Notes under the pieces: model-generated
What the model saw: the letters and a program-made list of their open reading frames with translations, nothing else
Told to the model about the DNA's origin: nothing
Databases searched by the model: none
In this document: piece by piece, positions 1 to 19,486 of the stretch
How positions within the stretch are numbered: position 1 is the stretch's first letter
Layout of the letters: every line of letters starts with the position of its first letter
IMG/VR virus record: IMGVR_UViG_3300042991_000725
Coordinates: 123,632-154,404 of that record
Reading direction: 5' to 3' (one strand)
DNA: 30,773 bases
From: a virus
Taxonomy: Duplodnaviria > Heunggongvirae > Uroviricota > Caudoviricetes
Position numbers and translations under genes: made by a program

Positions 1-246
1 ATTCAGCTTACAAAACATTTGGCCACACACTTCGCCCCTAACATCAGAGTTAATTGTGTGATGCCCGGAGGCATATTAAACAATCAAAATAAAGAGTTTG
101 TATATGCGTATTCTGGTATGGTTCCTGCTGGTAGAATGATGGATGTCGAAGAGGTTTGTGGTATTGTCCAGTTTCTTGTATCGGACGATTCTTCGTACTG
201 TACTGGTGGGGTTTTCCCGATAGATGGCGGGTATACAATTTGGTAG
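1..246 (+). CDS. Short-chain dehydrogenase/reductase, C-terminal part only (5' truncated by window); resembles the PtmA-like SDRs found beside NeuB genes
   Basis: Frame 1 is open from base 1: IQLTKHLATHFAPNIRVNCVMPGG...GIVQFLVSDDSSYCTGGVFPIDGGYTIW. IRVNxxxPG and FLxSDxSxYxTG...DGG are classical SDR C-terminal motifs. Confidence 0.85.
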   Translation: MQLTKHLATHFAPNIRVNCVMPGGILNNQNKEFVYAYSGMVPAGRMMDVEEVCGIVQFLVSDDSSYCTGGVFPIDGGYTIW

Positions 247-334
247 TGTGGAAGTTTTACCGGAGTTGGTACTGAAGAGATTCAAATGGTCCAAACTTGA
301 GAATCGTGTTACATAAAACCTGCATGTAAAAGGA

Positions 335-1201
335 ATGCAAATGTTAAATTTTAGAAAATTAAAAAGACCTTATTTGATTGCAGAAATTGGCGTAAACCAT
401 CTGGGCGATTTACAGATCACCAAACGTTTGATTGATGCCGCTTATGCTGCTGGATGGAACTGTGTTAAGTTTCAGAAAAGGACTCCAGAATTGTGCGTTC
501 CTGAAGACCAGAAGCATAAAAAGAGAGAGACGCCATGGGGAATTATGGAGTACATAGAATACAGGAATATTGTCGAATTTAGCAAAAGGGAATATGATTA
601 TATAAGAAATTATTGTAGAGAGAAGCCAATAGCATGGACGGCGTCTGTTTGGGACATTGAAAGTTTGGAATTTTTATGTACATATAAGAACGAGATAGAG
701 TTTATAAAAATCCCGTCTGCCCACCTAACGAACGACGATCTTGTTGTTTTTGCGGCGCGTTCTGGAATCTCTGTTATTTTGTCTACTGGCATGAGTACCC
801 TAGAAGAAATCGACCACGCTGTTGATCTTTTGAAAAGCAATAGGGCAGAATTTGCTCTGATGCACTGCAATTCTTCATATCCTGCAGCCAATAATGAGCT
901 GAATCTCAGCTGTATAAGGTCGCTGACAGACAGGTATTCGTGTGTTGTTGGTTATAGTGGCCACGAGGTAGGACTGTCGCCAACAGAAATGTCCATTGCT
1001 TTTGGTGCTATTATAATTGAGAGGCACGTTACGTTAGATAAAAACAGTTGGGGCACGGATCAGAAAAATTCTATTATTCCAGAAGAGATGTGCGCCCTAA
1101 AGAAAAATGTCGATGAGGCGTTTGATTGTTTGGGGGATGGCAAAAAGAGGGTTTGTGATTCTGAGATACCTCATCGTGATAAAATGAGGGCAAAGAAATG
1201 A
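335..1201 (+). CDS. neuB: N-acetylneuraminate (nonulosonate) synthase family protein, short form without the C-terminal SAF domain
   Basis: Motifs PYLIAEIGVNHLG, VKFQKR, IKIPSA, ILSTGM, LMHCNSSYP, VGYSGHE and IERHVTLD. The protein ends just after GDGKKRVCDSE. The start could be 335 or 341. Confidence 0.92.
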   Translation: MQMLNFRKLKRPYLIAEIGVNHLGDLQITKRLIDAAYAAGWNCVKFQKRTPELCVPEDQKHKKRETPWGIMEYIEYRNIVEFSKREYDYIRNYCREKPIAWTASVWDIESLEFLCTYKNEIEFIKIPSAHLTNDDLVVFAARSGISVILSTGMSTLEEIDHAVDLLKSNRAEFALMHCNSSYPAANNELNLSCIRSLTDRYSCVVGYSGHEVGLSPTEMSIAFGAIIIERHVTLDKNSWGTDQKNSIIPEEMCALKKNVDEAFDCLGDGKKRVCDSEIPHRDKMRAKK

Positions 1202-2190
1202 AAAAGAGATTTTTGATTGTTTTCCCAATAGCCTCTCCATATAGCAAATTGGTGGTTGCAAAAAGAGCATGCCGTTCTATTATTGACAAATTTTCTTACG
1301 AAGAAGACGATGCATTCTATACCGGATTTGACTATAAGCTTGTTTTTTATGTAGATGAATCGGTCTGTAGTGGAGATATAGTAAATTTTGCAAAAGGGGA
1401 GGCTAGAAGTAATCCAAATATCGTATATAGAAAGCACATGGGTTCTTGGACTAAAGATGTAAATCAATCCATCATAGACTGTGTTGCAGAAAGATACGAC
1501 TATCTAGTTTTGTTTCATGATGACATTTTTGTGGAAACAGACGGATGGAATGTTTTGATTGATAATTTTGCAGGCAAAAGGGATGATGTTGGCGTCATAA
1601 CATTTACAGATACGGTATATAGGAAAATATGTAGCTGTATTATTCCAATGCGCGAGGGGTATCACATAGATTCGTTTAATGGCGCATGGTCTACTAATAC
1701 GCTATTTCAGTATCACAAATTTCAGCCTAAGTGGTCTATAGATAAAAAGTTTCAAAGGTGGGACAGTATTTTAGAATCGAAACTGGATTATCCGACCGCT
1801 CCAGTGAAGATGTTTGCTAGCTGGTCAATGGTTATGATTGTTCCATTGAATGTGCTTAATTCTGGAGTAAAGTTTGAAGATTGGACCCCGTGGACACTTT
1901 TAAATGAGGCCGACTTTAATATGCAGTGTATTGAGATGGGGTACAATAATTGTTATATGCCCAACATTTGTTACGAACACCACAGGGAGAACAACATACC
2001 CAAAACTAGGTCAATGGATCAGATTATTCAATATAGGAATGTTGCACATGCGGCGTTCAGAAACAAGTGGGGCTTTTCTCATGAGCCAGAGGTTGCAGAC
2101 AAAAAGAAGATTTTTGAGAGATTTAAGAATACTACTGCTGAATGTTTGTTAAACACAAATAGTTTTGATTGGCAATATTTCAATGAATAA
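1198..2190 (+). CDS. GT-A/GT2-like glycosyltransferase, paralogue A
   Basis: DYLVLFHDDIF (DxD-like after a hydrophobic strand), LNEADFNMQ (ED-like catalytic region), and YxP...EHHR. ATGA overlap with neuB. Confidence 0.65.
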   Translation: MKKRFLIVFPIASPYSKLVVAKRACRSIIDKFSYEEDDAFYTGFDYKLVFYVDESVCSGDIVNFAKGEARSNPNIVYRKHMGSWTKDVNQSIIDCVAERYDYLVLFHDDIFVETDGWNVLIDNFAGKRDDVGVITFTDTVYRKICSCIIPMREGYHIDSFNGAWSTNTLFQYHKFQPKWSIDKKFQRWDSILESKLDYPTAPVKMFASWSMVMIVPLNVLNSGVKFEDWTPWTLLNEADFNMQCIEMGYNNCYMPNICYEHHRENNIPKTRSMDQIIQYRNVAHAAFRNKWGFSHEPEVADKKKIFERFKNTTAECLLNTNSFDWQYFNE

Positions 2191-3148
2191 ACTATTTATT
2201 TGTCAAGTCTTGGCATCTCCTGAAATTAGATTCCCTATTTTTAGGAAATCTTTTGAATCTATCTTTTATGCGACAGGACTTGATTATTCAGAATTCCAGC
2301 ACGTTGTTTTTGTGGATTGGAAAAAGATTCCTAAAACTGCGGAAATGTATTTGAAGTGGTTCTGTGGGATTCATAAGAATATTTCAGTATTTGATCATCG
2401 TGGAACGTGGGCTAACGATATTAATTGGAGTTTTCAAAAAGCGTGGCTTGACGATTTCAAATGGGTTGCGTGTTTTCATGACGATGTTTACAATGATACC
2501 GATGATTGGTTTGTAAAACTTGAGGCGGCTTATGAGGACAAACCCAACGTTGGCGTCATAACATCAACCGACATTATCTACAGAAAAACTGCAAGCTCAT
2601 ACCCTGTAGCTAGGCCCGGATACTATAAAGACGTTTATGAAAATAGCTGGGATGTTGGCAATATATTTCAGTTTAACAAATTTCGTGTTGATTGGAGGTA
2701 TGGTAAAATTTTTGATGAATGGAATGAAACCTTAGAGAATTATTTAGATTATCCGTCTGGTCCAGTAAAGACATTTTCGTCTTGGTCTTGTGTTATGGTT
2801 TTAAGGTCTGAACTTGCTAGAAAGCTACATGCTGAAAATTGGGTCCACTGGACCTTGCTGAATGAGCTCGATCTGAACATGCAGACGATGATGCTTGGCT
2901 ATTATAATTCATGGTTTCCGAAATGGGAGACTGAGCATCATAGAGACGACCCAAGCCATCCTGTGACTAGATCAAATTCATTAATAAAAGATTATAAAGA
3001 CGTGGCGCACAAGGCTTTTGAAAATAAGTGGGGGTTTAGCCATTTAGCGAAGAAGGAAGAGGTGGATCGTATAAGGAAACTTACAGAAGGGACGCTGCTC
3101 CGTGAGTTTATAGGCGAAAAATACACATACGATTGGGATTATTTATAA
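2183..3148 (+). CDS. GT-A/GT2-like glycosyltransferase, paralogue B
   Basis: WVACFHDDVY, LNELDLNMQ and TEHHR. Collinear with 1198..2190 (GVITxTDxxYRK, LDYPxxPVKxFxSWS, AHxAFxNKWGFSH). ATG at 2183 overlaps the upstream TAA and is preferred to the ATT start at 2165. Confidence 0.65.
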   Translation: MNKLFICQVLASPEIRFPIFRKSFESIFYATGLDYSEFQHVVFVDWKKIPKTAEMYLKWFCGIHKNISVFDHRGTWANDINWSFQKAWLDDFKWVACFHDDVYNDTDDWFVKLEAAYEDKPNVGVITSTDIIYRKTASSYPVARPGYYKDVYENSWDVGNIFQFNKFRVDWRYGKIFDEWNETLENYLDYPSGPVKTFSSWSCVMVLRSELARKLHAENWVHWTLLNELDLNMQTMMLGYYNSWFPKWETEHHRDDPSHPVTRSNSLIKDYKDVAHKAFENKWGFSHLAKKEEVDRIRKLTEGTLLREFIGEKYTYDWDYL

Positions 3149-3933
3149 TGGCCTTAATAAATGGCAGACAATCTATGACCGTTGTTATCACTGGTCGAAA
3201 TGATGGTTATTATGTCAAGCCGGACATTTACTACAAGATAAACAAGTACATTGAGAGTCTCAATAGGTCTTTTGGTCGCATAGAGAAAGATATAATATTT
3301 GTTGAATATAACAATCCAGAAAATGAACCTCATTTGTTTGAAAAGGTAAGGGGGAATAAGATTCGATGGATTGTTGTGCCACCGTCGTTTCATAAAACAG
3401 TAACCAATTTGGACTATATGTCGTTTTGTGAATTTTTTGCTAAAAACATAGGGATGAGAAGGACATCAGTAGATTGTGATTTTATTCTTGTTGGCAATCC
3501 CGACATTATTTTTAGAGATGGTTTTGCTAGAACACTTGAAAAAAGAAATTTATATCTTGGGGCTAAGTGGCATATGTTAAAGGGTATGAATGCGTGTCGT
3601 GATAAAAAGGACGCAAGTGTTCACGGTGCTCTTGGCGACTTTATGATTTTCGATAGAGAGTCGTGTTTCGAACTTAGGGGGTTTAGGCAAGCAGTAATAT
3701 GGGGAGGAATGGATACTAGATTTGCGTATGACTGGGTTGCAAGCAAAAGGAAGGTGATTGAAATGAGCAATTTTATTTTGCTCCATGAAGATCACGACAA
3801 AGATAGTCAATCACTTTTTGATCAGCGAAGGAAGAGAGAAGACAATAGAGCAAGAGGCGTTTTGGACAATCCGCCAGAAAACAGTCAAGATTGGGGATTC
3901 CCTCAAGTGGACTTTCAAGAGGTGATAGAATAA
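3148..3933 (+). CDS. Putative GT-A fold glycosyltransferase
   Basis: TVVITGRNDGY, IIFVEYN, DFILVGNPDIIF, GDFMIFDRE, GF...WGGMDTRF and LHEDH follow the order of GT2 motifs. TAATG overlap at 3148. Confidence 0.55.
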   Translation: MALINGRQSMTVVITGRNDGYYVKPDIYYKINKYIESLNRSFGRIEKDIIFVEYNNPENEPHLFEKVRGNKIRWIVVPPSFHKTVTNLDYMSFCEFFAKNIGMRRTSVDCDFILVGNPDIIFRDGFARTLEKRNLYLGAKWHMLKGMNACRDKKDASVHGALGDFMIFDRESCFELRGFRQAVIWGGMDTRFAYDWVASKRKVIEMSNFILLHEDHDKDSQSLFDQRRKREDNRARGVLDNPPENSQDWGFPQVDFQEVIE

Positions 3934-3934
3934 T

Positions 3935-4573
3935 ATGCCTATCGACAAAAATACTGTAGAGATGGTTCACGAATATTGGATGGACAACAAGACGTATGAA
4001 ATTTGGATACAGGACGAAGATTCTTCGTGTAATGGTGGCAATGGTGAATCTGGAATAACCAACACGTCTGCCATTAGGGTGATTAAGAATCTCAATATGC
4101 TCAAAGGCTATATGTCTAACGGCAATTTGGCGAGAGTCCATTTGTATAGTATAGGAGGAAGTGTTGAAGATGGGCTTGCAATTTATGATACCATTATGTC
4201 TATGCCTTACAAAGTCGTCATGTATTGCTATGCTTACGTTCCAAGTATGGCTTCTGTTGTTTTGCAGGCCGCAGACGAAAGAATCTTAATGCCATCAGCA
4301 TACTTGATGCTTCATCATGGTGAGATCAATGTTGGAGAAGGCAGTCAGGCGGCGTATGCTACTGTTGATTTTTGTAAGAAATTGGACAGTAAAATTCTTG
4401 ACATCTATGCTAATAGGGCGGTGCGTGGTCCAAAATTTAAAGGCAAGTCTGTTAGTTTTGTTAGAAAGAAATTTGACGAAGCGATGAACTCTAAGGGCAA
4501 TTTATATTTGAGTCCAGAAGAGGCTATTGAGTGGGGGTTGGCAGACTCTATAGTTAAAGGAAAATCTCTATGA
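3935..4573 (+). CDS. clpP: ClpP-like peptidase (S14 family), catalytic Asp apparently replaced by Asn
   Basis: HLYSIGGSVEDGLAIYDTI, PSMASVVLQAADER (Ser104), YLMLHH (His127), NLYLSPEEAIEWGLAD. N189 aligns with the Asp of the ClpP RDxFLSAxEA motif. Confidence 0.85.
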   Translation: MPIDKNTVEMVHEYWMDNKTYEIWIQDEDSSCNGGNGESGITNTSAIRVIKNLNMLKGYMSNGNLARVHLYSIGGSVEDGLAIYDTIMSMPYKVVMYCYAYVPSMASVVLQAADERILMPSAYLMLHHGEINVGEGSQAAYATVDFCKKLDSKILDIYANRAVRGPKFKGKSVSFVRKKFDEAMNSKGNLYLSPEEAIEWGLADSIVKGKSL

Positions 4574-5334
4574 ACTATGTCGATATAATCAAAAACAATA
4601 AAGAGGCGTTTGTTTCTAATTTTTATCCCAATAAACTTGGCCGTTGGTCTGAAGTCATCTATACTTATGACGATAGCAAAGAGCCAAAGATTCACGAAAT
4701 AGATATTTATAATATAATGAAAAGAGTAGAAAATAGAGACTATGAAAGTATGGGATTTCCAGACTTGGCTCCTGTTTTCCACGAAACGGTCAAGCGGCTC
4801 ATGTCTGTATCGAACAAGCTTAATGTTGCAAATTTTGGAGCTCTTCTGGGTGCATGGACAGCTCCCTATTTGTTTTATGAGTCTTTAGACAATATAGATG
4901 TTTATGAGCTTAGGCCAACAAACATCGAGCATCCTAAAATCAACGTAATATATAAAGATATGACTATGGAGCCATTGGACAAAATACGTCCAAAGTACGA
5001 CGTAATCAGCTGTATAGATTCAATTAGCCATGCTGGACTTGGCAGATATTCTAGTCTTGTTAGTCCAAATGCAGACATTAATATGGGCAAAAGAGTTTGT
5101 GGTTTATTGCGTCCCGGCGGCTATCTTATTATTGCTATAACGTGTGTGCTCAATGAAAGTGATGGCGGTATTATATTTAATATTCAGCGCAACTATACTA
5201 AGCATAGAATATCACTCTTAACAGAGGGCTTGGAACTAATAGAATGTTTGACAGAAGATTCCAAGCTAAAGGTTTTGCGTTCGGACATCCCGTCTGTTCG
5301 TAGGATGTTTTTATTTAGGAAGAGTAAACAATGA
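4570..5334 (+). CDS. DUF268-like SAM-dependent methyltransferase-fold protein
   Basis: YDVISCIDSISHAGLGRY...P.ADI...LLRPGGYLIIA...FN.QRNY matches the SxEHxGLGRYGD...LKPGG...FNxHRIY pattern of DUF268 proteins. Confidence 0.65.
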   Translation: MNYVDIIKNNKEAFVSNFYPNKLGRWSEVIYTYDDSKEPKIHEIDIYNIMKRVENRDYESMGFPDLAPVFHETVKRLMSVSNKLNVANFGALLGAWTAPYLFYESLDNIDVYELRPTNIEHPKINVIYKDMTMEPLDKIRPKYDVISCIDSISHAGLGRYSSLVSPNADINMGKRVCGLLRPGGYLIIAITCVLNESDGGIIFNIQRNYTKHRISLLTEGLELIECLTEDSKLKVLRSDIPSVRRMFLFRKSKQ

Positions 5335-5972
5335 ATGTTATAGCAATAGGTGCTCATATCGACGATATAGTTATCGGCTGTGGGGGAACACTATCAAAGT
5401 TTGTAGACAGAGGGGCGCGTGTTTTTGGTTTGACAATGACCAATTCGGAGACTCATTTTAACGAACGCGACATACATCGGACAAGCGAGGATGCTCATTG
5501 TGAAGAAAAAATGGCTTCTAAAATTATCGGCTATGATATTTACCAGTTTGATAATTTAGATATAAATGTTGGCGAGTTGTGCTACAGTGCTAGTTTGATG
5601 AAAAAGATAGAGTCTATACTTTTTGAAAATCATATAGATTATGTTTTTACTCATTGGCGCAACGATATAAATACGGACCATGCAGAGTGTTTTAAGATAG
5701 TAAGGACTGCGGCTAGGCATACAAAAAACGTATTGACATTTAGGACCAACTGGTATTGTGATGCAACAGCGCCAATTATCGAAAATGTTTATTCCAACAT
5801 AGATTCTACAATTTATCGAAAGGTAGACGCTTTGCATTGCTTTAAGACCGAGATAGACAATCGTGGAGAAATTTGGTTGCGTAGTTTCATCGATTATAAT
5901 GAGACATTGGGTTTTTGGCGTGGTGCTAAATTTGTTGAGGCTTTTGAGTGTGTTAAGATGGAGATGCCATAA
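5331..5972 (+). CDS. PIG-L/LmbE-family N-acetyl-sugar deacetylase
   Basis: IAIGAHIDDIVIGCGGTL (HxDD metal motif), VFTHW...NTDH (HxDH-like, first His is Asn), and C-terminal RKVDALHCFKTE...FVEAF. Confidence 0.85.
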   Translation: MNVIAIGAHIDDIVIGCGGTLSKFVDRGARVFGLTMTNSETHFNERDIHRTSEDAHCEEKMASKIIGYDIYQFDNLDINVGELCYSASLMKKIESILFENHIDYVFTHWRNDINTDHAECFKIVRTAARHTKNVLTFRTNWYCDATAPIIENVYSNIDSTIYRKVDALHCFKTEIDNRGEIWLRSFIDYNETLGFWRGAKFVEAFECVKMEMP

Positions 5973-6577
5973 TGGGACAACTTCAGAAGGGCAGACAATA
6001 TGACGAATTTTTGCTTGAATCGTTTGAATCTATTATTGAAAAATTTGAAATAAATAGTTATGTTGAGACTGGATTTCGCCATGCTATTTATATAGAAAAA
6101 TTACACAACAAATACAAGCATTTATTTGTTGGAGGTGCCGAAATAGACTCGGCGTGTTGTGAGTGCGCGTCTGGTTATTTAGGTAAAAGTAGTAGGTCGA
6201 TTTTAGAACAGTCAGATTCTGTAGTTTTTTTACGTAAACATATTGGAGGATTCCCCTCTCCTATATTGTTTTTTTTAGACGCAAATACTGAAGGTCAAGG
6301 AGCTAGGACTCCGGTTCAGGAAGAATTGAGATGTATCGCAGATGTATGCAGCAAATGTGTTGTTGTTATACACGATTTTAAGAATACACGAAACACGAAT
6401 CATAAAGGAACCATTTCATCCATAGAGTCTATTTCTTGGTTTTTAGAAGAAAAAAGACATACGGCATTGAGGTTCAATTACAATAGCACTTACGGTTGGG
6501 CAAATGTGCCCGTTGGAGCCGCATTTGTTTGGATTGGGTTTACACGAAAAGAAGTTGACAATTATCAGCCAAATTAG
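5972..6577 (+). CDS. Class I SAM methyltransferase-like hypothetical protein
   Basis: YVETGF (ETGT-like motif I), AEID, SDS, ILFFLDA, PVQEEL and VVIHDF match a common phage and bacterial methyltransferase-like family. TAATG overlap. Confidence 0.5.
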   Translation: MGQLQKGRQYDEFLLESFESIIEKFEINSYVETGFRHAIYIEKLHNKYKHLFVGGAEIDSACCECASGYLGKSSRSILEQSDSVVFLRKHIGGFPSPILFFLDANTEGQGARTPVQEELRCIADVCSKCVVVIHDFKNTRNTNHKGTISSIESISWFLEEKRHTALRFNYNSTYGWANVPVGAAFVWIGFTRKEVDNYQPN

Positions 6578-6586
6578 GAGGGCAAA

Positions 6587-7519
6587 ATGAACGTTCTTAT
6601 TACTGGGATTCTTGGTGTTATAGGCAGTGCTTTGGAAAGAGAGTTTCGCAACAGAAATGTGAATGTTTTTGGTTGTGATTTGGAACATACCAGCAAAGAC
6701 CGCTATATGCGTGTAGACATTGCCGACTTTAGAGAAATGAGAAGGGTTATAAAAACATTTAAGCCCGACATTGTTTATAATGCGGCTGCAGAGTTTGGAA
6801 GGTGGAATGGCGAAGATTATTATGAGCAGCTATATAGAACTAATTTTATAGGAACAAAGAACATTATCAGGCTTTCTGAGGAATACGGATTCAAAATTGT
6901 CCATTTTAGCTCTAGTGAAATATATTGTGATTACGATGGAATTATGACGGAAGATGTTCCAGACAAGGTTGTTTTGATTCCATTTAATGATTATGCCGCA
7001 TCTAAAAGGCTTAATGAATATCAGTTGACGAATAGTAGAAAGGCGTATGATACGGACTATGTGATAGTGAGACCATTTAACCTGTATGGAGAAGAGCCAT
7101 ACACGCCATACAGAAGCGTTGCTTGTAGATTTTGCTATCACGCACTTACATCTGCACCAATAACCGTGCATCGTGGACACAAAAGGTCTTCTTTATATAT
7201 AGATGATGCAGTAAGAACTCTAGCGAATATTATATACAACTTTAAGCCGGGAGGTGTATACAATCTAGGAGACGCCACAAGAACACATACGATAGAGGAA
7301 CTTGCAGATATAATATGGCGTTGTACTGGAGCTGACCCGTGCTTGATTAAATATGCCGATCCAGAGCCGATGACAACATTAAGCAAGATTACAGATACAA
7401 AGCGCGCAGAGCAAGATCTGGGTCATGAGGTCACAGTTAGTCTTGAAGATGGCATAGAAAAAACTGTGTCTTGGATGGAGAAAAAATATGGACTTATTCG
7501 TCCGAGGAATAGCCGATGA
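6587..7519 (+). CDS. NAD-dependent NDP-sugar epimerase/dehydratase (extended SDR)
   Basis: NVLITGILGVIG Rossmann motif, VYNAAA, HFSSSEIY, YAASK (YxxxK), RPFNLYG, VYNLG and SLEDGIEKTVSW. SD GGAGG at 6577-6581. Confidence 0.9.
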   Translation: MNVLITGILGVIGSALEREFRNRNVNVFGCDLEHTSKDRYMRVDIADFREMRRVIKTFKPDIVYNAAAEFGRWNGEDYYEQLYRTNFIGTKNIIRLSEEYGFKIVHFSSSEIYCDYDGIMTEDVPDKVVLIPFNDYAASKRLNEYQLTNSRKAYDTDYVIVRPFNLYGEEPYTPYRSVACRFCYHALTSAPITVHRGHKRSSLYIDDAVRTLANIIYNFKPGGVYNLGDATRTHTIEELADIIWRCTGADPCLIKYADPEPMTTLSKITDTKRAEQDLGHEVTVSLEDGIEKTVSWMEKKYGLIRPRNSR

Positions 7520-7620
7520 ACGGAGATCGTAGGTGTTTTGTTCCAAGTGTATACGAAAGAAGGGCCTATTCTAAGAATGGCGAAGATGGCATTCTTATGT
7601 ATATTTTAATCATAATTTAG
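7516..7620 (+). pseudogene. 34-codon remnant of a YSQxGEDG-type (FkbM-like) methyltransferase gene
   Basis: Reads MNGDRRCFVPSVYERRAYSKNGEDGILMYILIII*. It starts with an ATGA overlap like its neighbours and stops right after the family's N-terminal signature. Not in the ORF track. Confidence 0.5.
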
Positions 7621-7629
7621 GGAGGATGT

Positions 7630-8766
7630 ATGGATATTTTGTGGTGTGGCCCAGTTGCAGACTCTTCTGGTTATGGACATGCTTCTAGGCACTATTTGCA
7701 CTGGCTTCATAAAGAATACAAGGATGCCATAAATGTTCGCGTTGTGCAACGTAACTTTTTCAATGGCGAACTCATCCCTATTTCTAAGGATTACCCAGAG
7801 ATAACAGAAATGAGTGTGGCCCAACATGACTCGTATTCGTGTTATATTCAAAACTTGACTCCAAATACATTTGCATTAGATGATATTGCCAAATTTCACA
7901 TAGGGATGACAACTTTTGAAACAGACGGATTGCCACGCAATTGGGTTTCTAATATGCAAATGATGGACGCTATAATAACTTATACAGAATTTAATCGTAC
8001 CACATTTCAATCTTCTGGTGTAACTCGGCCGATTTATGTCGTTCCGCATGGAGTGGATACAGATGTTTTTAAGCCAAATGGCCCGTGTTTCCAAAAAATA
8101 AGGGAAACATTGGCCGGGTCCTATATATTCGGAAGCGTTTTTGACTGGACTGAGAGGAAAAACCCAGAACTGTTGCTTGAGGCATATTTTAAAGCGTTTG
8201 AAGGTAAATCTGACGTGGCCCTTATTCTAAAGTGTTTTTATCAGTTCCCTATAAGTCGGTCTAGAAAAATCATGATGGAAAAAATAGATGCTGTAAAGAG
8301 CAAGATGGGCACGTCAAAGTTGCCTCCTGTCTACATCATTAGCGACGTTCTTTCTGATATGCAAATGCCTATGTTTTATAATTCAATAGATGCATTAGTG
8401 AGCTGTTCGGGGGGGGAGGGGTGGGGTTTGTGTTTTAGCGAAGGTATGGCGTCTGGCCTTCCCGTTATTGCTACGAATTGGTCTGGCAATACAGAATTTA
8501 TGAATTCGGACAATAGTCTTTTGATCGATTGTACAATCAGAAATATTCCAGATAAATTCGTAGCCATACATCCGGATTACTCTGGACAAAAATGGGCATT
8601 CCCAGAATATAACGATCTTGTGGATAAGATGAGATTTTTATATCATAATAGGCAGAAGGGCGCAGAGCTAGGGGCTGTAGCCAGAAAAGACATTGAAGAG
8701 AAATGGACATGGAAACATGCGGTTGATAAGTTATCGTCGATATTAACTTCTATGTTTGGAGAATAA
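7630..8766 (+). CDS. GT4 (GT-B, group 1) glycosyltransferase
   Basis: SGYGHASR, VVPHGVDTDVFKP, ERKNPELLLEAY, SGGEGWGLCFSEGMASGLPVIATNWSG (ExxGxxxxE motif) and WTWKH. SD GGAGG at 7621-7625. Confidence 0.9.
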   Translation: MDILWCGPVADSSGYGHASRHYLHWLHKEYKDAINVRVVQRNFFNGELIPISKDYPEITEMSVAQHDSYSCYIQNLTPNTFALDDIAKFHIGMTTFETDGLPRNWVSNMQMMDAIITYTEFNRTTFQSSGVTRPIYVVPHGVDTDVFKPNGPCFQKIRETLAGSYIFGSVFDWTERKNPELLLEAYFKAFEGKSDVALILKCFYQFPISRSRKIMMEKIDAVKSKMGTSKLPPVYIISDVLSDMQMPMFYNSIDALVSCSGGEGWGLCFSEGMASGLPVIATNWSGNTEFMNSDNSLLIDCTIRNIPDKFVAIHPDYSGQKWAFPEYNDLVDKMRFLYHNRQKGAELGAVARKDIEEKWTWKHAVDKLSSILTSMFGE

Positions 8767-8767
8767 T

Positions 8768-9463
8768 ATGAAAGACTACATGTTTGATAAAGAATATTTT
8801 ACAAATAAAAATATTACATATTATGCCAAATTCAATATGGATTCATATATGGAAGTTTATAAAAGGCTGTTTGGTAGGATTATGACAATGCTGGATTATT
8901 ATAGACGAATCGGATTGGCTGATGGCACCATTAAAATTTTAGATTTAGGAAGTGGTTTAGGATATATGACAAAAGCCTTGGTTGATAACGATTTTGATGC
9001 TTACGGGATAGATATCTCGAACTATGCCAAAGAGAATGTGTGCTATAGTTTGATTAAGCACAAAACTATTGTTGGGGATATTAGGGAAATAGACAAGTAC
9101 TTTGATGACAATTTTTTTGATATAATAATTGGAACGCATGTTTTAGAATATTTTACAGAGCCTGAACTTAATTCTATAATGTCCAAATTAAGTGTTGTGT
9201 GCAAGAATGGAGCTAGGTGTTTGTTCACGATTTTTACAGACACAGACGACAAGGATATAAATAACAAGGTTGGATATATTGACAAATACAGAACGAAAGA
9301 TAAGTCGGTTGTTTTTTGGCGCAATTATTTTTCCAAGACAGATAATACAAACATGGAGCATGTTGGGCACTTAGTTAATGGTGCGGAAGAAATTATTTTT
9401 CAAATCAGTATGCATCGGGTCATTGGTCAAGAAAAAAAAGACTTATATTTGATTGAGGCATAA
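8768..9463 (+). CDS. Class I SAM-dependent methyltransferase
   Basis: KILDLGSGLG (motif I), YGIDIS, VGDI, FDIIIGTHVLEY and NG ahead of the CLFT strand. The start could be 8756 or 8768. Confidence 0.85.
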   Translation: MKDYMFDKEYFTNKNITYYAKFNMDSYMEVYKRLFGRIMTMLDYYRRIGLADGTIKILDLGSGLGYMTKALVDNDFDAYGIDISNYAKENVCYSLIKHKTIVGDIREIDKYFDDNFFDIIIGTHVLEYFTEPELNSIMSKLSVVCKNGARCLFTIFTDTDDKDINNKVGYIDKYRTKDKSVVFWRNYFSKTDNTNMEHVGHLVNGAEEIIFQISMHRVIGQEKKDLYLIEA

Positions 9464-9958
9464 ATGGATAGAGTAATCAGGATAATAAAAGACACCAGAG
9501 AACCTAGCTCATTCACTTTCGCTGGTCTACAAAAAGTAGATGCTGTAGATATTTTGAAATTAGATTTTGGAGATTATACAACGGAGAAGCTTAAGAACCT
9601 TGTGGTCATTGAAAGAAAGGCTAAAGGGGACCTCTTCCATACATTGGGGAGCGACCATGAGAGATTCGCAAAAGAACTTGATAGGGCCAGAGCGGTTGGT
9701 GTAAAGTATTTTTTTATTGTTATAGAGGCGTCTTTGGAAGGTGTGTATGAGGGGAACTGGGTTTTTATAAAAGGCAAAGGCAGGACTATGACGTTCCCTT
9801 ATGGTAGTAGTGCGGTATCCCAGCTCATCAATTATTCACTAAAGGACGGGATGCGCATTATCCCGGTGTATGCTGACAATATAGGCACTTCTAGAAAAAT
9901 CATCCGCGATATTCTGATTAAGGCTGAAGAGATGTTGGAGAAAGGAGTTCTTAAATAA
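9464..9958 (+). CDS. ERCC4-domain (XPF/Mus81-type) structure-specific nuclease
   Basis: IIKDTREP, LDFGDY, VVIERKAKGDL, RFAKELDR and FIVIE give the DxRE / GD / ERK signature of ERCC4 domains. Confidence 0.85.
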   Translation: MDRVIRIIKDTREPSSFTFAGLQKVDAVDILKLDFGDYTTEKLKNLVVIERKAKGDLFHTLGSDHERFAKELDRARAVGVKYFFIVIEASLEGVYEGNWVFIKGKGRTMTFPYGSSAVSQLINYSLKDGMRIIPVYADNIGTSRKIIRDILIKAEEMLEKGVLK

Positions 9959-12900
9959 TGTATTATACGTTTGATACTAAAAACCCATTTTACGATCTTA
10001 TAGTTTCAAAGCTGCCAATTGAAGAGCAGATCGTTCATGTTGCAATGAGAAATCCTGCGTTTGCATGTAAGTACATTTTCAATACTGAGATTTTTGCGTT
10101 CCAGAACCTGATGTTCAAAATTTTTGCAGAAAAACCGTTTCCTTTGCTGGTTGCAAACAGAGGCTATGGCAAATGTGTAACTGGTGATACTAATTTAGTC
10201 ACAAATTCTGGTTTTGTTAAAATATCCGAAATCGTGGGTGATTGTGATGTAATGGTTAAAAAGAAGCATGATAATTTATTGTTACATGGTGAAAACGGAT
10301 ACAAAAAAGTGAAATATTCGTGGAATAATGGAGTGTCTGACACGCTAAAGATTGTTACTAGAAGTGGGTTCCAGATTGAGGGGACATATAACCATCCTGT
10401 TCGTGTCGTTAGGAGTGGTAAATTAGAATGGATTGATTTAAAAGACGTTGTTGTCGGCGACAGACTTCCAATTATAAGGGACGACACTTGGTTTGATGAG
10501 ACCAACAAGCTTACTCAAGATGAAGCCTATTTATTTGGGTTGCTTGTGGGAGATGGTGGATATACTGTTCGTGGCAGCGTTTCTTTTACAAACAAGGATA
10601 CTTTCCTTGTTAGTGAAGCAATGCGCTTATCCAAGAAAGTTTTTGGCAAGAGTTTTGTAGATGTATCCTCTGCACCGTATGGTCACAAATTGTATGGGAC
10701 TGATATTTGGGATAGTTTGTTTAATAAATATGGATTTAATTCTTCTGTGTGTGGCGAAAAAGATTTTCCCACTTCGGTTTTGTCGGCCCCTAAGCGCTCG
10801 ATGATATCGTTTATTCAAGGGCTTTTTGATACGGACGGTTATGTTGGAGTGGCCGAGATTGGTATTACGATGAAGTCGGAAAATATAATACGTAGACTTC
10901 AATATATATTAACATTTTTTGGTATTATCTCCAATGTTAGGATTAGATACAACAAGAAATACGAAACAAGTTATTTTTGTTTATCTATGTTTGGTAAAAA
11001 TGCAAGACTGTTTTTAAGCAAGATAGGATTTAGATTAAAGCGCAAGCAGACTATTGGCGTATTGAGATTGTCTAAAAAAACCAATTCTAACACAGACACA
11101 ATACCTAATAATTTAATTAAAGATGTAGTTTTGAAAATAAGAAATAGGTATGCAGAGATTTGTCGGCACAAAATTAGATCTGCCGGGAATATAAAGGACT
11201 ACGAATGTACTTATGAATTTTTACAAAAAATTTTGAAAACCGCAATATCTTGCAATAAAAATAACGTTTGTAGTGATTCTGAAATAAAGTACATTCAGTC
11301 TATTATGCATAAACATTATTTTTATGATACGGTAAAAAAAATATCTGCTAGTAAAAACAAAACATACGACGTTAATATACCGAAAGACCATTCTTTTAAT
11401 AGTAACGGATTCATATCTCACAACAGCTTTGCTCTTGCCGTACATGCTGTATTAACCGCGCTATTCAATCAGGGATCTAAGACAATACTTGTGGCTAGAA
11501 ATTATAGACAGTGCGTTGACGGCAAGTCTCTATTATTTAGTGACAACGGCATTATTAGAATGAGAGACGTGTCGGTAGGATACGTTGTTGCCGATGGGGA
11601 TAGCGTTAACAAGGTGCGTCATCATTGGGAAGTTGCAGAACAGCAGACGACAACAATTACAACAAACAATGGGTATTTTATTCATGGTGCCGACAATCAC
11701 AAGGTTCTCAAGAATGGTTTTTGGTCTACATTGAGCCATACTGAGGTTGGAGATGCCGTTCAGATATTCTACGGACAGGATTTATTTTCTAAAAAAGACG
11801 TTGATCTGTTACCTATGGGTTTTAATCGCGTATCTGTCCAGGACAAGAGATTGCAGTTACCAAAAAGTGTCGACAAAGATCTTGCATGGATTTTGGGGAA
11901 GATATTCTCTAAGAGGGCGTCGGAGGATAATGGCACTATTCGTTTCAATATTAAAGATGCCACTACGAGAGACAGATATTATAGGAAAGTGTCTAGTATA
12001 TTCAACTACAAGGTTATTCGGGAGTATAAAAAGAAAAGGAGAAGTTTTTACGCCGGAAAGATCATAAACAAAAATATTTGCAATTTCCTTAGAGAGAATG
12101 GTATTGATTTAACTAGGCGAATGTTGCCGTCATGCATATTGATGTCCAAGAAGGAAACTGTTTGTTCTTTCATATCTTCGCTTATTGAAGAGTCGGTTTC
12201 AATTGATAGGTTACGGAAGTCTATAGTTTTTAGGCACTGGTCAAATCCTCTGCTTAAAGATGTCCAGATTGTTTTACTTAATTTTGGGATTATTTCTAAT
12301 AGGGCATATGATCGTATTGAAATCAAGGGTCTTTCAAATATTGCCAATTTTGCCAAAAACTTTACAATAAAAGGTCAAGAGAACAACAACAAGTTAAATA
12401 CAATTTTATCAAAGTCTGATGATAGAGTTGGGCATGACATACTCGTCTTTGATGATAGAATTCGGTTTATATTAACGCACAATAAGGTCAATGTTGATGA
12501 GTGGAGAGGTGAGGCCATCGACGGCTTTATTCCTGTCAAGAAGCTTAAGGATATCGCGGATAAGTATAATTTGTCGAGTGTGTTGGTAGACTATATTTTG
12601 CCAAATTGTTTTTGTGATAAGGTTATTTCTATAGAGAAGTCTCTTGGGATAACTTATGATGTCGAGATTGACGAGTCTTCAAGATATTTCGCCAATGGAT
12701 TTATTAATCACAATTCGCAGCTGGTGTTTGATTATATTACAACCATATACAATAAGTCCGAAATTTTACAGAATATAACGAATAAGCCTCCTACAAAGGC
12801 CACATCTTCTTGTTTATTCACTATTGGAGATTCTTACATAAAGGCTATTCCTCTTGGTGATGGTTCTGGCGTCCGTGGCGAACGTGCTACAAATATCCTT

Positions 12901-14166
12901 GTTGACGAGTATCCGTTTGTTCCAGAAGATGTTTTTCAGACGGTTATCCGTGGTTTTGCTGCAGTTTCTGGCGATCCAGTACAAAGGGTGCGGATGAAAG
13001 CAAGGATTAATGAATATATTAGAAAGGGACTTCCTGTTCCTAAGGAGCTTAGGTTGTCGAGTAACCAGATATTGTTGACCGGAACTGCGTATTATGAGGA
13101 TAACCATTTTACTAAGACTTATTATAAATACAGAAATCTTATTGATAATAAATACTGTGGTTCAGTTGGAGATGTAGACCAAAGTGTTGCCGGAAATGAA
13201 TATGTTGACTACAAGGATTATGCCGTACTTCATTTTGATTATACCATGCTCCCAGATGGTTATATGGAAGAAAAGCAGATTAGCCAAGCCAAGCTTACGA
13301 TGAGTGAGTCTGCATTCGCAATGGAATATATGAGTAAGTTCCAATCAAATTCTCAAGGTTTTTATAAGCATAGTGATGTCCAAAAATGTGAAAGTGCTGG
13401 TACAGACAGATATGTTGTTGAGGTGCGTGGGAATCCTGCGTGCCAGTATGTGCTTGGAATAGATCCATCAAGTGGCGGAGTAGCAGAATTCGGTGTATGT
13501 ATAATGAAAATTACTAATGAATTTAAGCCAGTCGTTTTTGCAAAAGGTATGGAAAAATATACATTTCCTGAAGCATTAGAAGAAATTAAAAGGTTGCTGC
13601 GTATGTTTAATATTGTCAAGATATGCATGGACTCCCAAGGTGGAGGTTTTACTGTAAGGGATTTGCTTAGAGATTCAAGGATTATGGGCAGTTATCCTTT
13701 GATATTTGAATCTGCATCTGAAAACAAAACTGCGACTGGAAGATATATATTAGAGTTGGTCAATCCAACATCTGCTTGGAACCTTAAGGCTAACCAGGAT
13801 ATGCAATCAGACCTTCATCATAGAAGGGTCTTATTTCCAGCATATGGTTATGTATCTAATGATCCAACTGAAATTAGAGAAGCCGAAGACGCTGAAGACG
13901 AAATGCGCAAAATGAGGATGCAGTTAGAGAGTATAGAGCTTTCGATGACAAAAAACGGCTTTTCTCATTTCGATGTTCCGTCTAGAAAAATATCGGAGGG
14001 TGATGCAAAAAGGATTATTAGAATGAGGAAAGACTTATTTTCGGCGTTGCTTTTGGCTAATTATGCTGCTAATCAGATGTTAACAACTCCTTTAACTCAA
14101 TCTATATATAGCAATCCAGACAATTTTGGTGGTTGGGCTTCAGAATTTACTGGTCGAAATGGGTAA
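9958..14166 (+). CDS. terL: Terminase large subunit precursor with two inteins (about 584 aa after splicing)
   Basis: Removing the inteins restores Walker A ANRGYGKS. Also Walker B NILVDEY, LLTGTAY coupling motif, and an RNase H-like nuclease domain (YVLGIDPSS, ICMDSQGGG, KDLFSALLLA). Directly upstream of portal and head genes. Confidence 0.92.
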   Translation: MYYTFDTKNPFYDLIVSKLPIEEQIVHVAMRNPAFACKYIFNTEIFAFQNLMFKIFAEKPFPLLVANRGYGKCVTGDTNLVTNSGFVKISEIVGDCDVMVKKKHDNLLLHGENGYKKVKYSWNNGVSDTLKIVTRSGFQIEGTYNHPVRVVRSGKLEWIDLKDVVVGDRLPIIRDDTWFDETNKLTQDEAYLFGLLVGDGGYTVRGSVSFTNKDTFLVSEAMRLSKKVFGKSFVDVSSAPYGHKLYGTDIWDSLFNKYGFNSSVCGEKDFPTSVLSAPKRSMISFIQGLFDTDGYVGVAEIGITMKSENIIRRLQYILTFFGIISNVRIRYNKKYETSYFCLSMFGKNARLFLSKIGFRLKRKQTIGVLRLSKKTNSNTDTIPNNLIKDVVLKIRNRYAEICRHKIRSAGNIKDYECTYEFLQKILKTAISCNKNNVCSDSEIKYIQSIMHKHYFYDTVKKISASKNKTYDVNIPKDHSFNSNGFISHNSFALAVHAVLTALFNQGSKTILVARNYRQCVDGKSLLFSDNGIIRMRDVSVGYVVADGDSVNKVRHHWEVAEQQTTTITTNNGYFIHGADNHKVLKNGFWSTLSHTEVGDAVQIFYGQDLFSKKDVDLLPMGFNRVSVQDKRLQLPKSVDKDLAWILGKIFSKRASEDNGTIRFNIKDATTRDRYYRKVSSIFNYKVIREYKKKRRSFYAGKIINKNICNFLRENGIDLTRRMLPSCILMSKKETVCSFISSLIEESVSIDRLRKSIVFRHWSNPLLKDVQIVLLNFGIISNRAYDRIEIKGLSNIANFAKNFTIKGQENNNKLNTILSKSDDRVGHDILVFDDRIRFILTHNKVNVDEWRGEAIDGFIPVKKLKDIADKYNLSSVLVDYILPNCFCDKVISIEKSLGITYDVEIDESSRYFANGFINHNSQLVFDYITTIYNKSEILQNITNKPPTKATSSCLFTIGDSYIKAIPLGDGSGVRGERATNILVDEYPFVPEDVFQTVIRGFAAVSGDPVQRVRMKARINEYIRKGLPVPKELRLSSNQILLTGTAYYEDNHFTKTYYKYRNLIDNKYCGSVGDVDQSVAGNEYVDYKDYAVLHFDYTMLPDGYMEEKQISQAKLTMSESAFAMEYMSKFQSNSQGFYKHSDVQKCESAGTDRYVVEVRGNPACQYVLGIDPSSGGVAEFGVCIMKITNEFKPVVFAKGMEKYTFPEALEEIKRLLRMFNIVKICMDSQGGGFTVRDLLRDSRIMGSYPLIFESASENKTATGRYILELVNPTSAWNLKANQDMQSDLHHRRVLFPAYGYVSNDPTEIREAEDAEDEMRKMRMQLESIELSMTKNGFSHFDVPSRKISEGDAKRIIRMRKDLFSALLLANYAANQMLTTPLTQSIYSNPDNFGGWASEFTGRNG
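10174..11424 (+). mobile_element. Intein 1 (417 aa) with an apparently intact LAGLIDADG homing endonuclease
   Basis: Starts CVTGDT right after the P-loop Lys. Block B GTYNHPV, blocks C and E LFGLLVGDG and FIQGLFDTDG, end TYDVNI...NGFISHN followed by Ser. Confidence 0.95.
11512..12714 (+). mobile_element. Intein 2 (401 aa) with a degenerate LAGLIDADG domain
   Basis: Starts CVDGKS, block B GADNHKV, end TYDVEI...ANGFINHN followed by Ser. The endonuclease blocks read LAWILGKIFSKR and FISSLIEESVS. Confidence 0.9.
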
Positions 14167-14172
14167 ATTTAT

Positions 14173-14189
14173 GGTGTATATATAATTAG
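14173..14189 (+). promoter_or_regulatory. Candidate phage late-promoter motif, copy 1 (GGTGTATAT-ATA-A-T-TAG)
   Basis: In the 49-nt gap between terL and portal. Shares 13 of 17 positions with the copies at 17035 and 21802. Confidence 0.6.
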
Positions 14190-14215
14190 GCAATTTTTCT
14201 TGGAGAATCCATTAA

Positions 14216-15910: not shown

Positions 15911-15918
15911 AGGGAGTT

Positions 15919-17799: not shown

Positions 17800-17832
17800 T
17801 TATTCCGATTATAATTTTTAGGAGATTTAAAA

Positions 17833-18279
17833 ATGGGACTTAAAGGTGATATGGTTGGCGTTCTCTACGAGAACAAGTACGTTGCGAGCACAAATGACAT
17901 GGAAAAGGGTGGTATTGCTTGCGTGTCTACGGCTGGTTCGGGAAATAAGACGACTATTTCTTATCCCGGCAATCCTAGCGGAGCATATGCTGTAGGCGTT
18001 CTCATGGAAACGGTAGATAAGGATCTGGATTGGACGGATCGTCCTCGTTACACTGAGAAGGGCACTCTTGACGCTGGTGAACAGGTTCCGCTTCTTGTTA
18101 TCGGTCAGGTCAACACGAACATGATCGTAACTGGCGTTACTCCTTCTCCGGGCGAGACTGCGTATCTTGGCGCTTCTGGTAAAGTGACGAATGTCCTTGC
18201 TGATGGCGCTCCGACTATTGGCCAGTTTGCTACGATGAAGGACGCCAATGGCTATGTGTATCTTGACGTTCGTCTGTAA
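17833..18279 (+). CDS. Putative capsid decoration/cement protein
   Basis: 148 aa, Gly/Thr/Val-rich, between scaffold and major capsid genes. SD AGGAG. AVGVL...IGQV...YLGASG...IGQF pattern recalls head-decoration proteins. Confidence 0.55.
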   Translation: MGLKGDMVGVLYENKYVASTNDMEKGGIACVSTAGSGNKTTISYPGNPSGAYAVGVLMETVDKDLDWTDRPRYTEKGTLDAGEQVPLLVIGQVNTNMIVTGVTPSPGETAYLGASGKVTNVLADGAPTIGQFATMKDANGYVYLDVRL

Positions 18280-18342
18280 TAAATGGTGTTGTAAACCCTA
18301 GCGGGATATAATATCCTGCGTTTAGGAAAAGGAGAAACGAAA

Positions 18343-19350: not shown

Positions 19351-19376
19351 AATAGTTATCAAATAAGCACTTATGT

Positions 19377-19413
19377 AAAAATCCTCAATGAAAAATTGGG
19401 GATTTTTATTTTT
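19377..19413 (+). terminator. Rho-independent terminator after the major capsid gene
   Basis: AAAAATCCTCAAT-GAAAA-ATTGGGGATTTTT hairpin (one G.U pair) followed by ATTTTT. The A and T flanks suggest it works in both directions. Confidence 0.8.
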
Positions 19414-19417
19414 CCCA

Positions 19418-19445
19418 TTGACAATTTGAACTTCTATAGTATACT
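19418..19445 (+). promoter_or_regulatory. Sigma70-type promoter for the HTH-nuclease gene
   Basis: TTGACA (19418-19423), 16-nt spacer, TATACT (19440-19445). SD GGAG before ATG 19487. Confidence 0.6.
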
Positions 19446-19486
19446 GTCAATAGAGAAATAAAACATTAACCCATTGGAGAGATAAC

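Follow-up and report, generated by a model that had tools for sequence, protein, structure and literature searches.

The 30,773-nucleotide stretch analysed here (the window) is the final 30.8 kb (G000:C1:123632-154404) of the 154,404-bp IMG/VR virus record IMGVR_UViG_3300042991_000725, and its left part belongs to a glycan gene cluster that runs into the phage packaging genes. Our analysis suggests that this cluster is a functional phage module, which would make a CMP-activated nonulosonate-type sugar and assemble a tailored hetero-oligosaccharide in the cytoplasm; we put the probability of this at about 0.85. The glycan block comprises 20 genes over ~17.5 kb (genome 115607-133094), beginning 8 kb upstream of the window at genome 115607 and occupying window positions 1-9463. 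Its ~8 transferases share the strand of the terL, portal and capsid genes and are encoded within 18 kb upstream of them.

The DNA is that of a phage, and neither host chromosome nor a chimeric assembly. With a terminal overlap of 127 bp, the record is classed as complete, giving a closed 154-kb genome, and an independent 50.7-kb contig, built with a second assembler from a cave-metagenome DNA run, matches window 1-20000 with 0 differences at flat depth. This is the sole public run in which the stretch was detected, and the cave may be the sampled source. A sister phage from one other sample, represented by the contigs L097 and L024/L004, which abut within the same DegT gene, has the same gene order; its capsid protein is 58% identical. 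These three observations exclude a host-chromosomal or chimeric origin of the left part, which an earlier note on this DNA had named as what would overturn its proposal of a phage-built glycan. Every real gene of the window reads in the plus direction, and the glycan region is uniform in GC content (~0.37-0.40). The phage is large, uncultivated and probably virulent (lytic-type). The whole-genome family search gave no match to tyrosine integrase (PF00589), so classical lysogenic conversion is unlikely. The major capsid protein has >600 metagenome relatives, many of them marine (Tara), and no match among 50,697 GenBank phage records, hence no cultured relative; TerL matches GenBank phages through its inteins only.

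Genes of the cluster and the pathway they would encode

Families were assigned by Pfam, PHROG and NCBIfam profile searches, by ESM Atlas features and structure, and by sequence comparison with relatives. The earlier note had read a short-chain dehydrogenase/reductase (SDR), NeuB, DUF268, PIG-L, an NDP-sugar epimerase, GT4, ERCC4 and terL from the letters of the window, and all eight are present where it had placed them. The cluster within the window, with lengths in amino acids (aa), reads as follows.

1-246 (+): classical SDR, C-terminal third; whole gene 232 aa, genome 123179-123877; adh_short_C2 match on the window part
335-1201 (+): NeuB-family nonulosonate synthase, short, 288 aa, no SAF domain; PF03102 221.8 bits (cut-off 22.1)
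1198-2190 (+): GT-A-like paralogue, 330 aa; paralogous to 2165-3148; no Pfam, PHROG or NCBIfam match
2165-3148 (+): GT-A-like paralogue, 327 aa; among phage GT2 clusters by Atlas features; no Pfam, PHROG or NCBIfam match
3133-3933 (+): GT-A-fold glycosyltransferase, 266 aa; Atlas features and structure (template modelling (TM) score 0.82, phage Glycos_transf_2 clusters); no Pfam match; 39% identity in the sister phage
3935-4573 (+): ClpP-family serine protease; CLP_protease 71.3 bits; phrog_94 "head maturation protease" 8.5e-27; Clp_rel_HeadMat 64 bits, below cut-off
4570-5334 (+): DUF268-family protein, methyltransferase-like; PF03269 43.8 bits, above cut-off
5331-5972 (+): PIG-L/LmbE-family de-N-acetylase; PF02585 57.4 bits; BshB1 56 bits, below cut-off
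5972-6577 (+): 201-aa protein; Rossmann/methyltransferase-like motifs only, no family match
6587-7519 (+): extended SDR, NDP-sugar 4,6-dehydratase/epimerase-like, 310 aa; PF01370 132.9 bits; dTDP-glucose 4,6-dehydratase 97.5, below cut-off; phrog_540
7520-7629 (+): 110-nt gap with a gene remnant; 35-codon frame at window 7513-7620, ending ...NGEDGIL...
7630-8766 (+): GT4 (GT-B) glycosyltransferase; Glyco_trans_1_4, Glycos_transf_1; phrog_2170 1.3e-34; 53% identity in the sister phage
8756-9463 (+): class I S-adenosylmethionine-dependent methyltransferase, 235 aa; Methyltransf_11, _23 and _25; 37% identity in the sister phage

The NeuB-type synthase retains all of the residues that are invariant across 20 homologues, and its best PDB match is the 290-aa 6NCS. 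Against the equivalog models it stays under both cut-offs (NeuB_NnaB 217.9 bits, cut-off 399.65; PseI 161.5 bits, cut-off 340.25). The whole 232-aa SDR upstream of it gave 108 bits, with 81.5 bits for NCBIfam PtmA, under cut-off, the PtmA-like match being one among many SDR matches. Three GT-A-like proteins had been proposed for the window. The products of 2165-3148 and 3133-3933 do fall in Atlas phage GT2/GT-A clusters, while 1198-2190 is placed with them by its paralogy to 2165-3148; both paralogues match a single sister-phage gene, at 38% and 43% identity. The proposal of two methyltransferases besides DUF268 holds for 8756-9463, which matches class I methyltransferase families, but for 5972-6577 it relies on Rossmann/methyltransferase-like motifs. 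This 201-aa protein is 38% identical to the product of the gene directly after neuB in the sister phage (L004:104-709), with which it shares ETG..GAE.D..FFLDAN..IHDF blocks. The NCBIfam search gave no family for the unnamed cluster proteins.

Upstream of the window, the plus-strand unit starts after a divergent promoter region with the unassigned genes g01 and g02, followed by a single-stranded DNA-binding protein (SSB), a class II-like ribonucleotide reductase (RNR) and then the glycan genes: GT2, Epimerase_2, GT2, g08 (276 aa), g09 (276 aa), CTP_transf_3, a 291-aa extended SDR, DegT and the classical SDR. The earlier note had pointed to this region as the place for a CMP-nonulosonate synthetase (NeuA), and a cytidylyltransferase is indeed found there (CTP_transf_3, genome 120160-120942, plus strand; PF02348 52.2 bits, cut-off 22.6), with NCBIfam matches that are weak and of KdsB type only. 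For the NeuC/LegB-type genes also suggested there, the picture is mixed: an aminotransferase resembling LegC and PseC (DegT 198 bits; LegC 172 and PseC 169 bits, both below cut-off) and Epimerase_2 lie just upstream, but the latter passes the non-hydrolysing WecB equivalog (235.5 vs 210.15; NeuC_NnaA 57 bits), and the LegB matches of the cluster SDRs are weak (46 and 38 bits, beside the dTDP-glucose dehydratase match at 97 bits).

Two of the upstream genes were characterized through their predicted folds. The g08 protein carries DTGS.D and DGDE motifs, and its predicted fold is GT-A (predicted local distance difference test (pLDDT) 82, predicted TM score (pTM) 0.86); in the PDB it comes closest to SunS and ThuS (E 4e-9, TMq ~0.5), ahead of SpsA, WrtF, TarS and collagen galactosyltransferase. 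SunS and ThuS are peptide S-glycosyltransferases that act on peptides in the cytoplasm. The g09 protein has 3 relatives only among 1.8 billion representatives in an exhaustive HMMER search and no significant match in a PDB sequence search. Its model, built on three sequences, is a small GT-B fold (pLDDT 76) whose first neighbours are TarL/TagF (Z 14.1), with UDP-GlcNAc 2-epimerases, SenB and PglA within ~1 Z unit. TarL and TagF are CDP-alditol transferases. Because these matches are tied within ~1 Z unit, the fold cannot separate a transferase from a hydrolase, and g09 could supply either an NDP-sugar hydrolase step or a CMP-sugar transferase. The transferases thus amount to six GT-A, one GT4 and one GT-B-fold protein (g09), ~8 in total, accompanied by two or three methyltransferases. 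A second Glycos_transf_1 (GT4) domain occurs far from the cluster, in a 560-aa open frame at genome 44709-46391.

In the pathway that we propose, dehydratase-like SDRs, DegT, a second SDR, the SAF-less NeuB-type synthase and CTP_transf_3 would yield the CMP-activated nonulosonate-type sugar (the genes of this core, with g09 at its left end and neuB at its right, span genome 119337-124832), and a second branch, the WecB-type 2-epimerase, would provide UDP-ManNAc. The six GT-A proteins, GT4 and the small GT-B-fold protein would then assemble the hetero-oligosaccharide, which the methyltransferases and the PIG-L deacetylase would tailor. The presence of DegT and of dehydratase-like SDRs indicates that the sugar is probably of the 5,7-diamino legionaminic/pseudaminic (Leg/Pse) class rather than Neu5Ac; the exact sugar is not fixed by the matches, since NeuB and the cytidylyltransferase are below equivalog cut-offs and no acetyltransferase was found. 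Known bacterial Leg/Pse/Neu clusters likewise combine a NeuB-family synthase, CTP_transf_3, DegT and SDRs with glycosyltransferases and methyltransferases. The present cluster differs from them in being phage-encoded, in its SAF-less 288-aa NeuB under the equivalog cut-offs and its WecB-type 2-epimerase, and in that no PseH/LegH, Wzx, Wzy, initiating transferase or Maf was found.

Conservation of the cluster beside terL

In the sister phage, the unit reads g01, g02, SSB, RNR, GT2, GT2, g08, cytidylyltransferase, MT24, g09 and DegT, then radical SAM/SPASM, NeuB, the 201-aa protein, two GT-A genes, radical SAM and a 286-aa protein, and finally GT4, methyltransferase, ERCC4, TerL, portal, the homologue of a 626-aa head protein, cement and capsid. 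Of the 20 cluster genes it has 12, which are 37-55% identical and likewise located between RNR and ERCC4-terL; the shared genes include NeuB, the cytidylyltransferase, DegT and five transferases, all intact. Conservation beside terL, which the earlier note had proposed as a check, is therefore seen for the core. The 2-epimerase, the two extended SDRs, the classical SDR, ClpP, DUF268 and PIG-L are not in the sister phage, which has other tailoring genes instead. These comparisons indicate that the slot and the core are conserved and that the tailoring set turns over. The RNR of the sister phage (L097:4782-7991) is longer, 1069 aa vs 812 aa here, with a ~250-aa insertion after the equivalent of residue 291 that is possibly an intein.

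Distant marine relatives, whose capsid proteins are 43-46% identical, retain the order ERCC4-TerL-portal-X-cement-capsid and carry a single sugar epimerase just upstream of ERCC4-terL. Their terL-containing unit is headed by a sigma-70 region 2-like gene (L098:6987-7508). In some of them (L005:14421-17128; L006-L008), Methyltransf_24 and a 717-aa GT2 fusion with weak sulfotransferase matches are located downstream among the structural genes.

Two intergenic gaps of the cluster hold gene remnants, which indicates that it gains and loses genes. One is the 110-nt gap in the window; the other is a 184-nt gap upstream of DegT with a 68-codon remnant (genome ~121795-122001; L003:16796-17002) that corresponds to the Rossmann N-terminus (GSSGMAGS) of a GDP-fucose-synthase-like SDR. 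The position beside terL might be without functional meaning, a permissive insertion slot for horizontally acquired sugar genes, some of them decaying, whose product is perhaps not a nine-carbon sugar. Such a slot would fit the remnants and the variable content (one epimerase in the marine relatives against ~20 genes here), and also the unrelated ClpP gene, inserted here and absent from the sister phage. The scores of NeuB and the cytidylyltransferase, below every equivalog cut-off, with the weak matches of the latter of KdsB type, would fit another product. The 12 genes kept intact at 37-55% identity and the retained invariant residues of NeuB argue against this explanation, which concerns position only and is compatible with any target of the glycan. 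We regard it as quite improbable, the least probable of the alternatives considered here.

The target of the glycan

The enzymes point to an acceptor that would be soluble and cytoplasmic, because the cluster has no parts for lipid-carrier initiation, flipping or export. No convincing membrane span was found in the 31 proteins from g01 through the gene after the capsid gene, and the genome has no match to a Bac_transf (PF02397) initiating transferase. No flippase, polymerase or ligase is encoded in the cluster; outside the cluster, the genome was not searched with Wzx/Wzy profile models. The acceptor would most likely be proteins of the phage's own virion, modified ahead of assembly or in its course. 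This virion glycosylation is favoured by the all-soluble enzymes, the lytic lifestyle, the place by the packaging and head genes, the sugar genes in the structural modules of relatives and the SunS-like g08, and it is our leading reading of the target, held at somewhat less than even odds. Its more specific form is slightly more tentative: the phage would make its own CMP-nonulosonate, and its phage-specific GT-A/GT-B transferases would use this, without Maf, to cap the methylated, partly de-N-acetylated glycan that its head or fibre proteins would carry.

The main rival is remodelling of the host envelope. The oligosaccharide would be built on host undecaprenyl-phosphate or would cap a host glycan, and the initiating transferase, flippase and ligase of the host would attach it to lipopolysaccharide (LPS), the capsule or the S-layer, with the possible effect of blocking superinfection or of keeping progeny from sticking to infected cells and debris. 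The origin of NeuB fits this rival. The closest relatives of the protein are bacterial, from many phyla, 55-63% identical, ~283 aa long and without a SAF domain. In the two bacterial neighbourhoods examined, NeuB is accompanied by cytidylyltransferase, aminotransferase, SDR, methyltransferases, radical SAM and GT4; both are polysaccharide-type loci, and one (L015) also has a Wzx-type flippase and Wzy_C. The differing content of the sister phage (12 of 20 genes shared, with remnants in two gaps) is as in fast-evolving surface-glycan loci, and the same reading has been published for the "LPS genes" of P-SSM2 (PMC1079782). The present phage has kept the soluble steps but not the parts for export: the cluster lacks an initiating transferase, flippase, polymerase, ligase and any membrane protein, and no integrase was found. 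Moreover, with ~8 transferases the glycan would be a new one, which the Wzx and ligase of the host would need to handle, and the sister phage also has the module beside its packaging genes. We consider envelope remodelling fairly unlikely; it ranks next after virion glycosylation.

The NeuB module was also examined in other viruses. A single-sequence search of IMG/VR gave nothing; an alignment-based search detected this NeuB type in at least 243 contigs, including complete 186-203-kb genomes. In GenBank, 2 of 50,697 phage records match NeuB, a 484-kb huge phage and a Kyanoviridae single-virus genome, and in the Kyanoviridae record SDR, cytidylyltransferase, DegT and NeuB are consecutive. Among the best 80 viral NeuB loci (L016-L095), 51 encode a full-length homologue of GT4 (21-27% identical) at a distance of 0.8-9 kb from neuB, in the orientation of neuB and usually upstream of it, and cytidylyltransferase, DegT and SDR are each detectable in 23-26. 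If virion capping is true, the short NeuB and GT4 pair would be the portable core of a virion "sialylation" trait. In nine other IMG/VR records with a detectable Terminase_6N, the sister phage excluded, neuB and the terminase gene are 14-65 kb apart; this distance weakens the argument from position and counts for envelope remodelling, and the adjacency of neuB and terL is thus specific to the lineage and not general to phage NeuB modules.

The time of expression bears on the target as well. The earlier note had described a tightly packed cluster in which it found no terminator, and had taken this to suggest co-expression with the packaging genes and hence late expression. The packing is largely as described: between the first glycan gene and terL, 20 of the 22 same-strand junctions do not exceed 9 nt, compared with 74 of 142 in the remainder of the genome (Fisher p = 4e-4), and terminator-like sites, no more frequent than in shuffled sequences, do not occur between genes. 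The window nevertheless has two loose junctions, a gap of 88 nt ahead of neuB and one of 110 nt (7520-7629). The conclusion of late expression does not follow. The cluster is joined to SSB/RNR as tightly as to terL, the first GT2 gene overlapping the RNR gene by 10 nt, and the promoter picture points the same way, so the label "late" loses its basis on the sequence evidence. At genome 111108-111135, ahead of the opening gene of the unit, there is a 12/12 sigma-70 consensus with extended -10. Another perfect one (genome 121182-121210) falls within the gene of the 291-aa SDR, ~800 nt before DegT begins, and an 11/12 site is ahead of ERCC4. A perfect TTGACA-N16-18-TATAAT precedes neuB by ~280-840 nt in five viral loci (L029, L049, L058, L064 and L083); the sister-phage contigs have no perfect consensus.

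A candidate late-promoter motif, GGTGTATAT...TAG, has a 9-mer core, GGTGTATAT, with 7 plus-strand copies in the genome against 1.1 expected (p ~2e-4).

Genome 3058, 14056, 52297, 77566, 137804, 140666 and 145433 (+; the last three are window 14173, 17035 and 21802): copies of the GGTGTATAT core

The copies are before the portal gene, within the 626-aa head gene, before the fibre block and in four other places, two of which are shortly upstream of open reading frames in the 0-50 kb plus-strand block. Genome 110.7-137.8 kb is free of copies, and none is upstream of the glycan cluster, ERCC4 or terL; the first one of this block comes after terL. The sigma-70-type promoters and the SSB/RNR junction fit early or middle expression, which counts for envelope remodelling.

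Other observations also weigh against virion glycosylation or against the pathway behind it. Soluble enzymes are compatible with a host-envelope target too; peripheral GT2 and GT4 enzymes acting on lipid-linked intermediates also look soluble. The Maf/MptE-like domain is the known type of protein O-nonulosonate transferase (flagellin-type O-nonulosonylation), and the entire genome, searched in all six frames, yielded no candidate for it (PF01973, E <= 0.01); in NCBIfam, the unnamed cluster proteins match no named nonulosonate transferase family. The N-acetyltransferase (PseH/LegH) was not found, with no GNAT or hexapeptide match above threshold and a 16-bit GNAT_acetyltran trace in the cluster proteins, nor was a clear NDP-sugar hydrolase (PseG, LegG/NeuC), the 2-epimerase scoring as the non-hydrolysing WecB type. 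In the capsid, cement and 626-aa head proteins, no 30-residue window reaches 40% Ser/Thr and there are no Ser/Thr-rich tails; by this proxy check, an 832-aa fibre-like protein (window 22237-24735) is the sole one with such windows.

The glycan may instead be attached to another cytoplasmic target, such as phage DNA bases, a non-structural protein of host or phage, or a small molecule, in defence evasion or host takeover. The place of the cluster directly after SSB/RNR and before nuclease and terminase would suit such a role, as would the soluble appearance of all the enzymes and a weak match of GT4 to the Pfam family "GT4 in conflict systems" (24.4 bits, below cut-off). For DNA as the target, the genome has no match to a ThyA-like hydroxymethylase (PF00303) for hydroxymethylcytosine or hydroxymethyluracil; other base-modification routes were not searched. 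In addition, eight transferases with tailoring enzymes far exceed known DNA glycosylation systems, and we know of no nonulosonate-modified DNA. We judge a target of this kind improbable, clearly more so than the host envelope.

Virion glycosylation, the reading that we prefer, has parallels among known viruses. Mimivirus fibril clusters and the capsid glycans of PBCV-1 are cases in which virus-encoded nucleotide-sugar synthesis and many soluble transferases decorate the particle independently of the host. These giant viruses and chloroviruses infect eukaryotes, whereas the present virus is a tailed phage, and to our knowledge no nonulosonate synthase has been shown to act there. The mycobacteriophages Che8, Corndog and Myrna are described as bearing glycans on the C-terminal tails of capsid and tail-tube subunits (Freeman et al. 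2023, via PMC12619734), and their phage glycosyltransferases, encoded near structural genes, are placed in a cytoplasmic, protein-directed model similar to ours. Those systems use few transferases and host nucleotide sugars; the present one is known from genes only, ~20 of them, with putative de novo synthesis of a rare acidic sugar and without Ser/Thr-rich tails. The lytic T4-like cyanophage P-SSM2 has 24 "LPS genes", read as modifiers of the host surface (PMC1079782); such clusters are not beside terL, and P-SSM2 was not among the matches when the 50,697 GenBank phage records were searched with NeuB. In the archaeal virus HRPV-1, the spike VP4 carries 5-N-formyl-legionaminic acid, which is apparently involved in adsorption (PMC6137143). 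HRPV-1 is enveloped, its host makes both the sugar and the N-glycan, and it has no viral pathway, whereas the pathway here is viral. Virus-encoded glycan machinery is thus already known from giant viruses, chloroviruses and a few mycobacteriophages; for a phage-made sialic-acid-like sugar, our literature search found no report of phage-encoded nonulosonate (sialic, legionaminic or pseudaminic) biosynthesis, and a large NeuB phylogeny study does not mention viruses.

With at least 243 IMG/VR contigs against two GenBank phage records, the NeuB module is not rare. If the sugar is on particles, it would bear on the surface charge and stability of phages, on their recognition by hosts and grazers, and on immune visibility, and virus-encoded "sialylation" may shield the particle or mediate adsorption. 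If it is on the host, it would represent a large unexplored class of surface conversion by lytic phages. In both cases the cluster is a source of new enzymes, among them a SAF-less NeuB, GT-A families confined to phages, and a minimal GT-B protein, possibly a new nonulosonate transferase or hydrolase.

Packaging and head genes downstream

The glycan genes are followed in the window by a packaging and head module.

9464-9958 (+): ERCC4-like nuclease; phrog_3490 3e-9; PF02732 22.8 bits, just under cut-off
9958-14166 (+): large terminase, 1402 aa, with ~584 aa of extein and two inteins; Intein_splicing, LAGLIDADG_3
14216-15910 (+): portal; phrog_2739
15919-17799 (+): 626-aa protein with a coiled-coil C-half, assigned by sequence; conserved in relatives
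17833-18279 (+): cement/decoration protein; Phage_cement
18343-19350 (+): major capsid protein; phrog_2522 major head protein
19351-19486 (+): hairpin and T-run right after the capsid gene, then a promoter, then a 596-aa multi-helix-turn-helix gene

The order of the head module is identical in all relatives. An ERCC4 homologue (31-54% identity) directly precedes terL in every relative examined (L004-L010, L098 and L100), and no small terminase was recognised; the ERCC4-type protein may be a packaging-linked nuclease. The ClpP-family protease encoded at 3935-4573, which the earlier gene list had passed over, is not a sugar enzyme, and its Ser and His motifs are present. No homologue was found in the loci fetched from the sister phage and more distant relatives (L004-L010, L024, L097, L098 and L100). 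We considered a role as head-maturation protease and regard it as improbable, as the gene is absent from the sister phage and the other relatives, while the conserved 626-aa protein fills the usual protease/scaffold position. The promoter after the capsid gene (TTGACA-16-TATACT, 11/12, window 19418-19445), together with the hairpin and T-run, marks a clear unit boundary, the end of the terL-to-capsid unit.

TerL owes its length of 1402 aa to the two inteins, whose limits were set by alignment with intein-free and one-intein TerL relatives. Intein A (aa 73-489, nt 10174-11424) contains a LAGLIDADG domain and interrupts the Walker A motif at GK|S, whereas intein B (aa 519-919, nt 11512-12714) follows RQ|C; they are 29 residues apart, and both have the form Cys1...His-Asn|Ser. 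In the sister phage, TerL has intein B alone; in the marine relative L009, a third site is occupied by an intein, and the TerL of L005 is intein-free. As the intein sites differ between relatives, terL is an intein hot-spot of this phage family.

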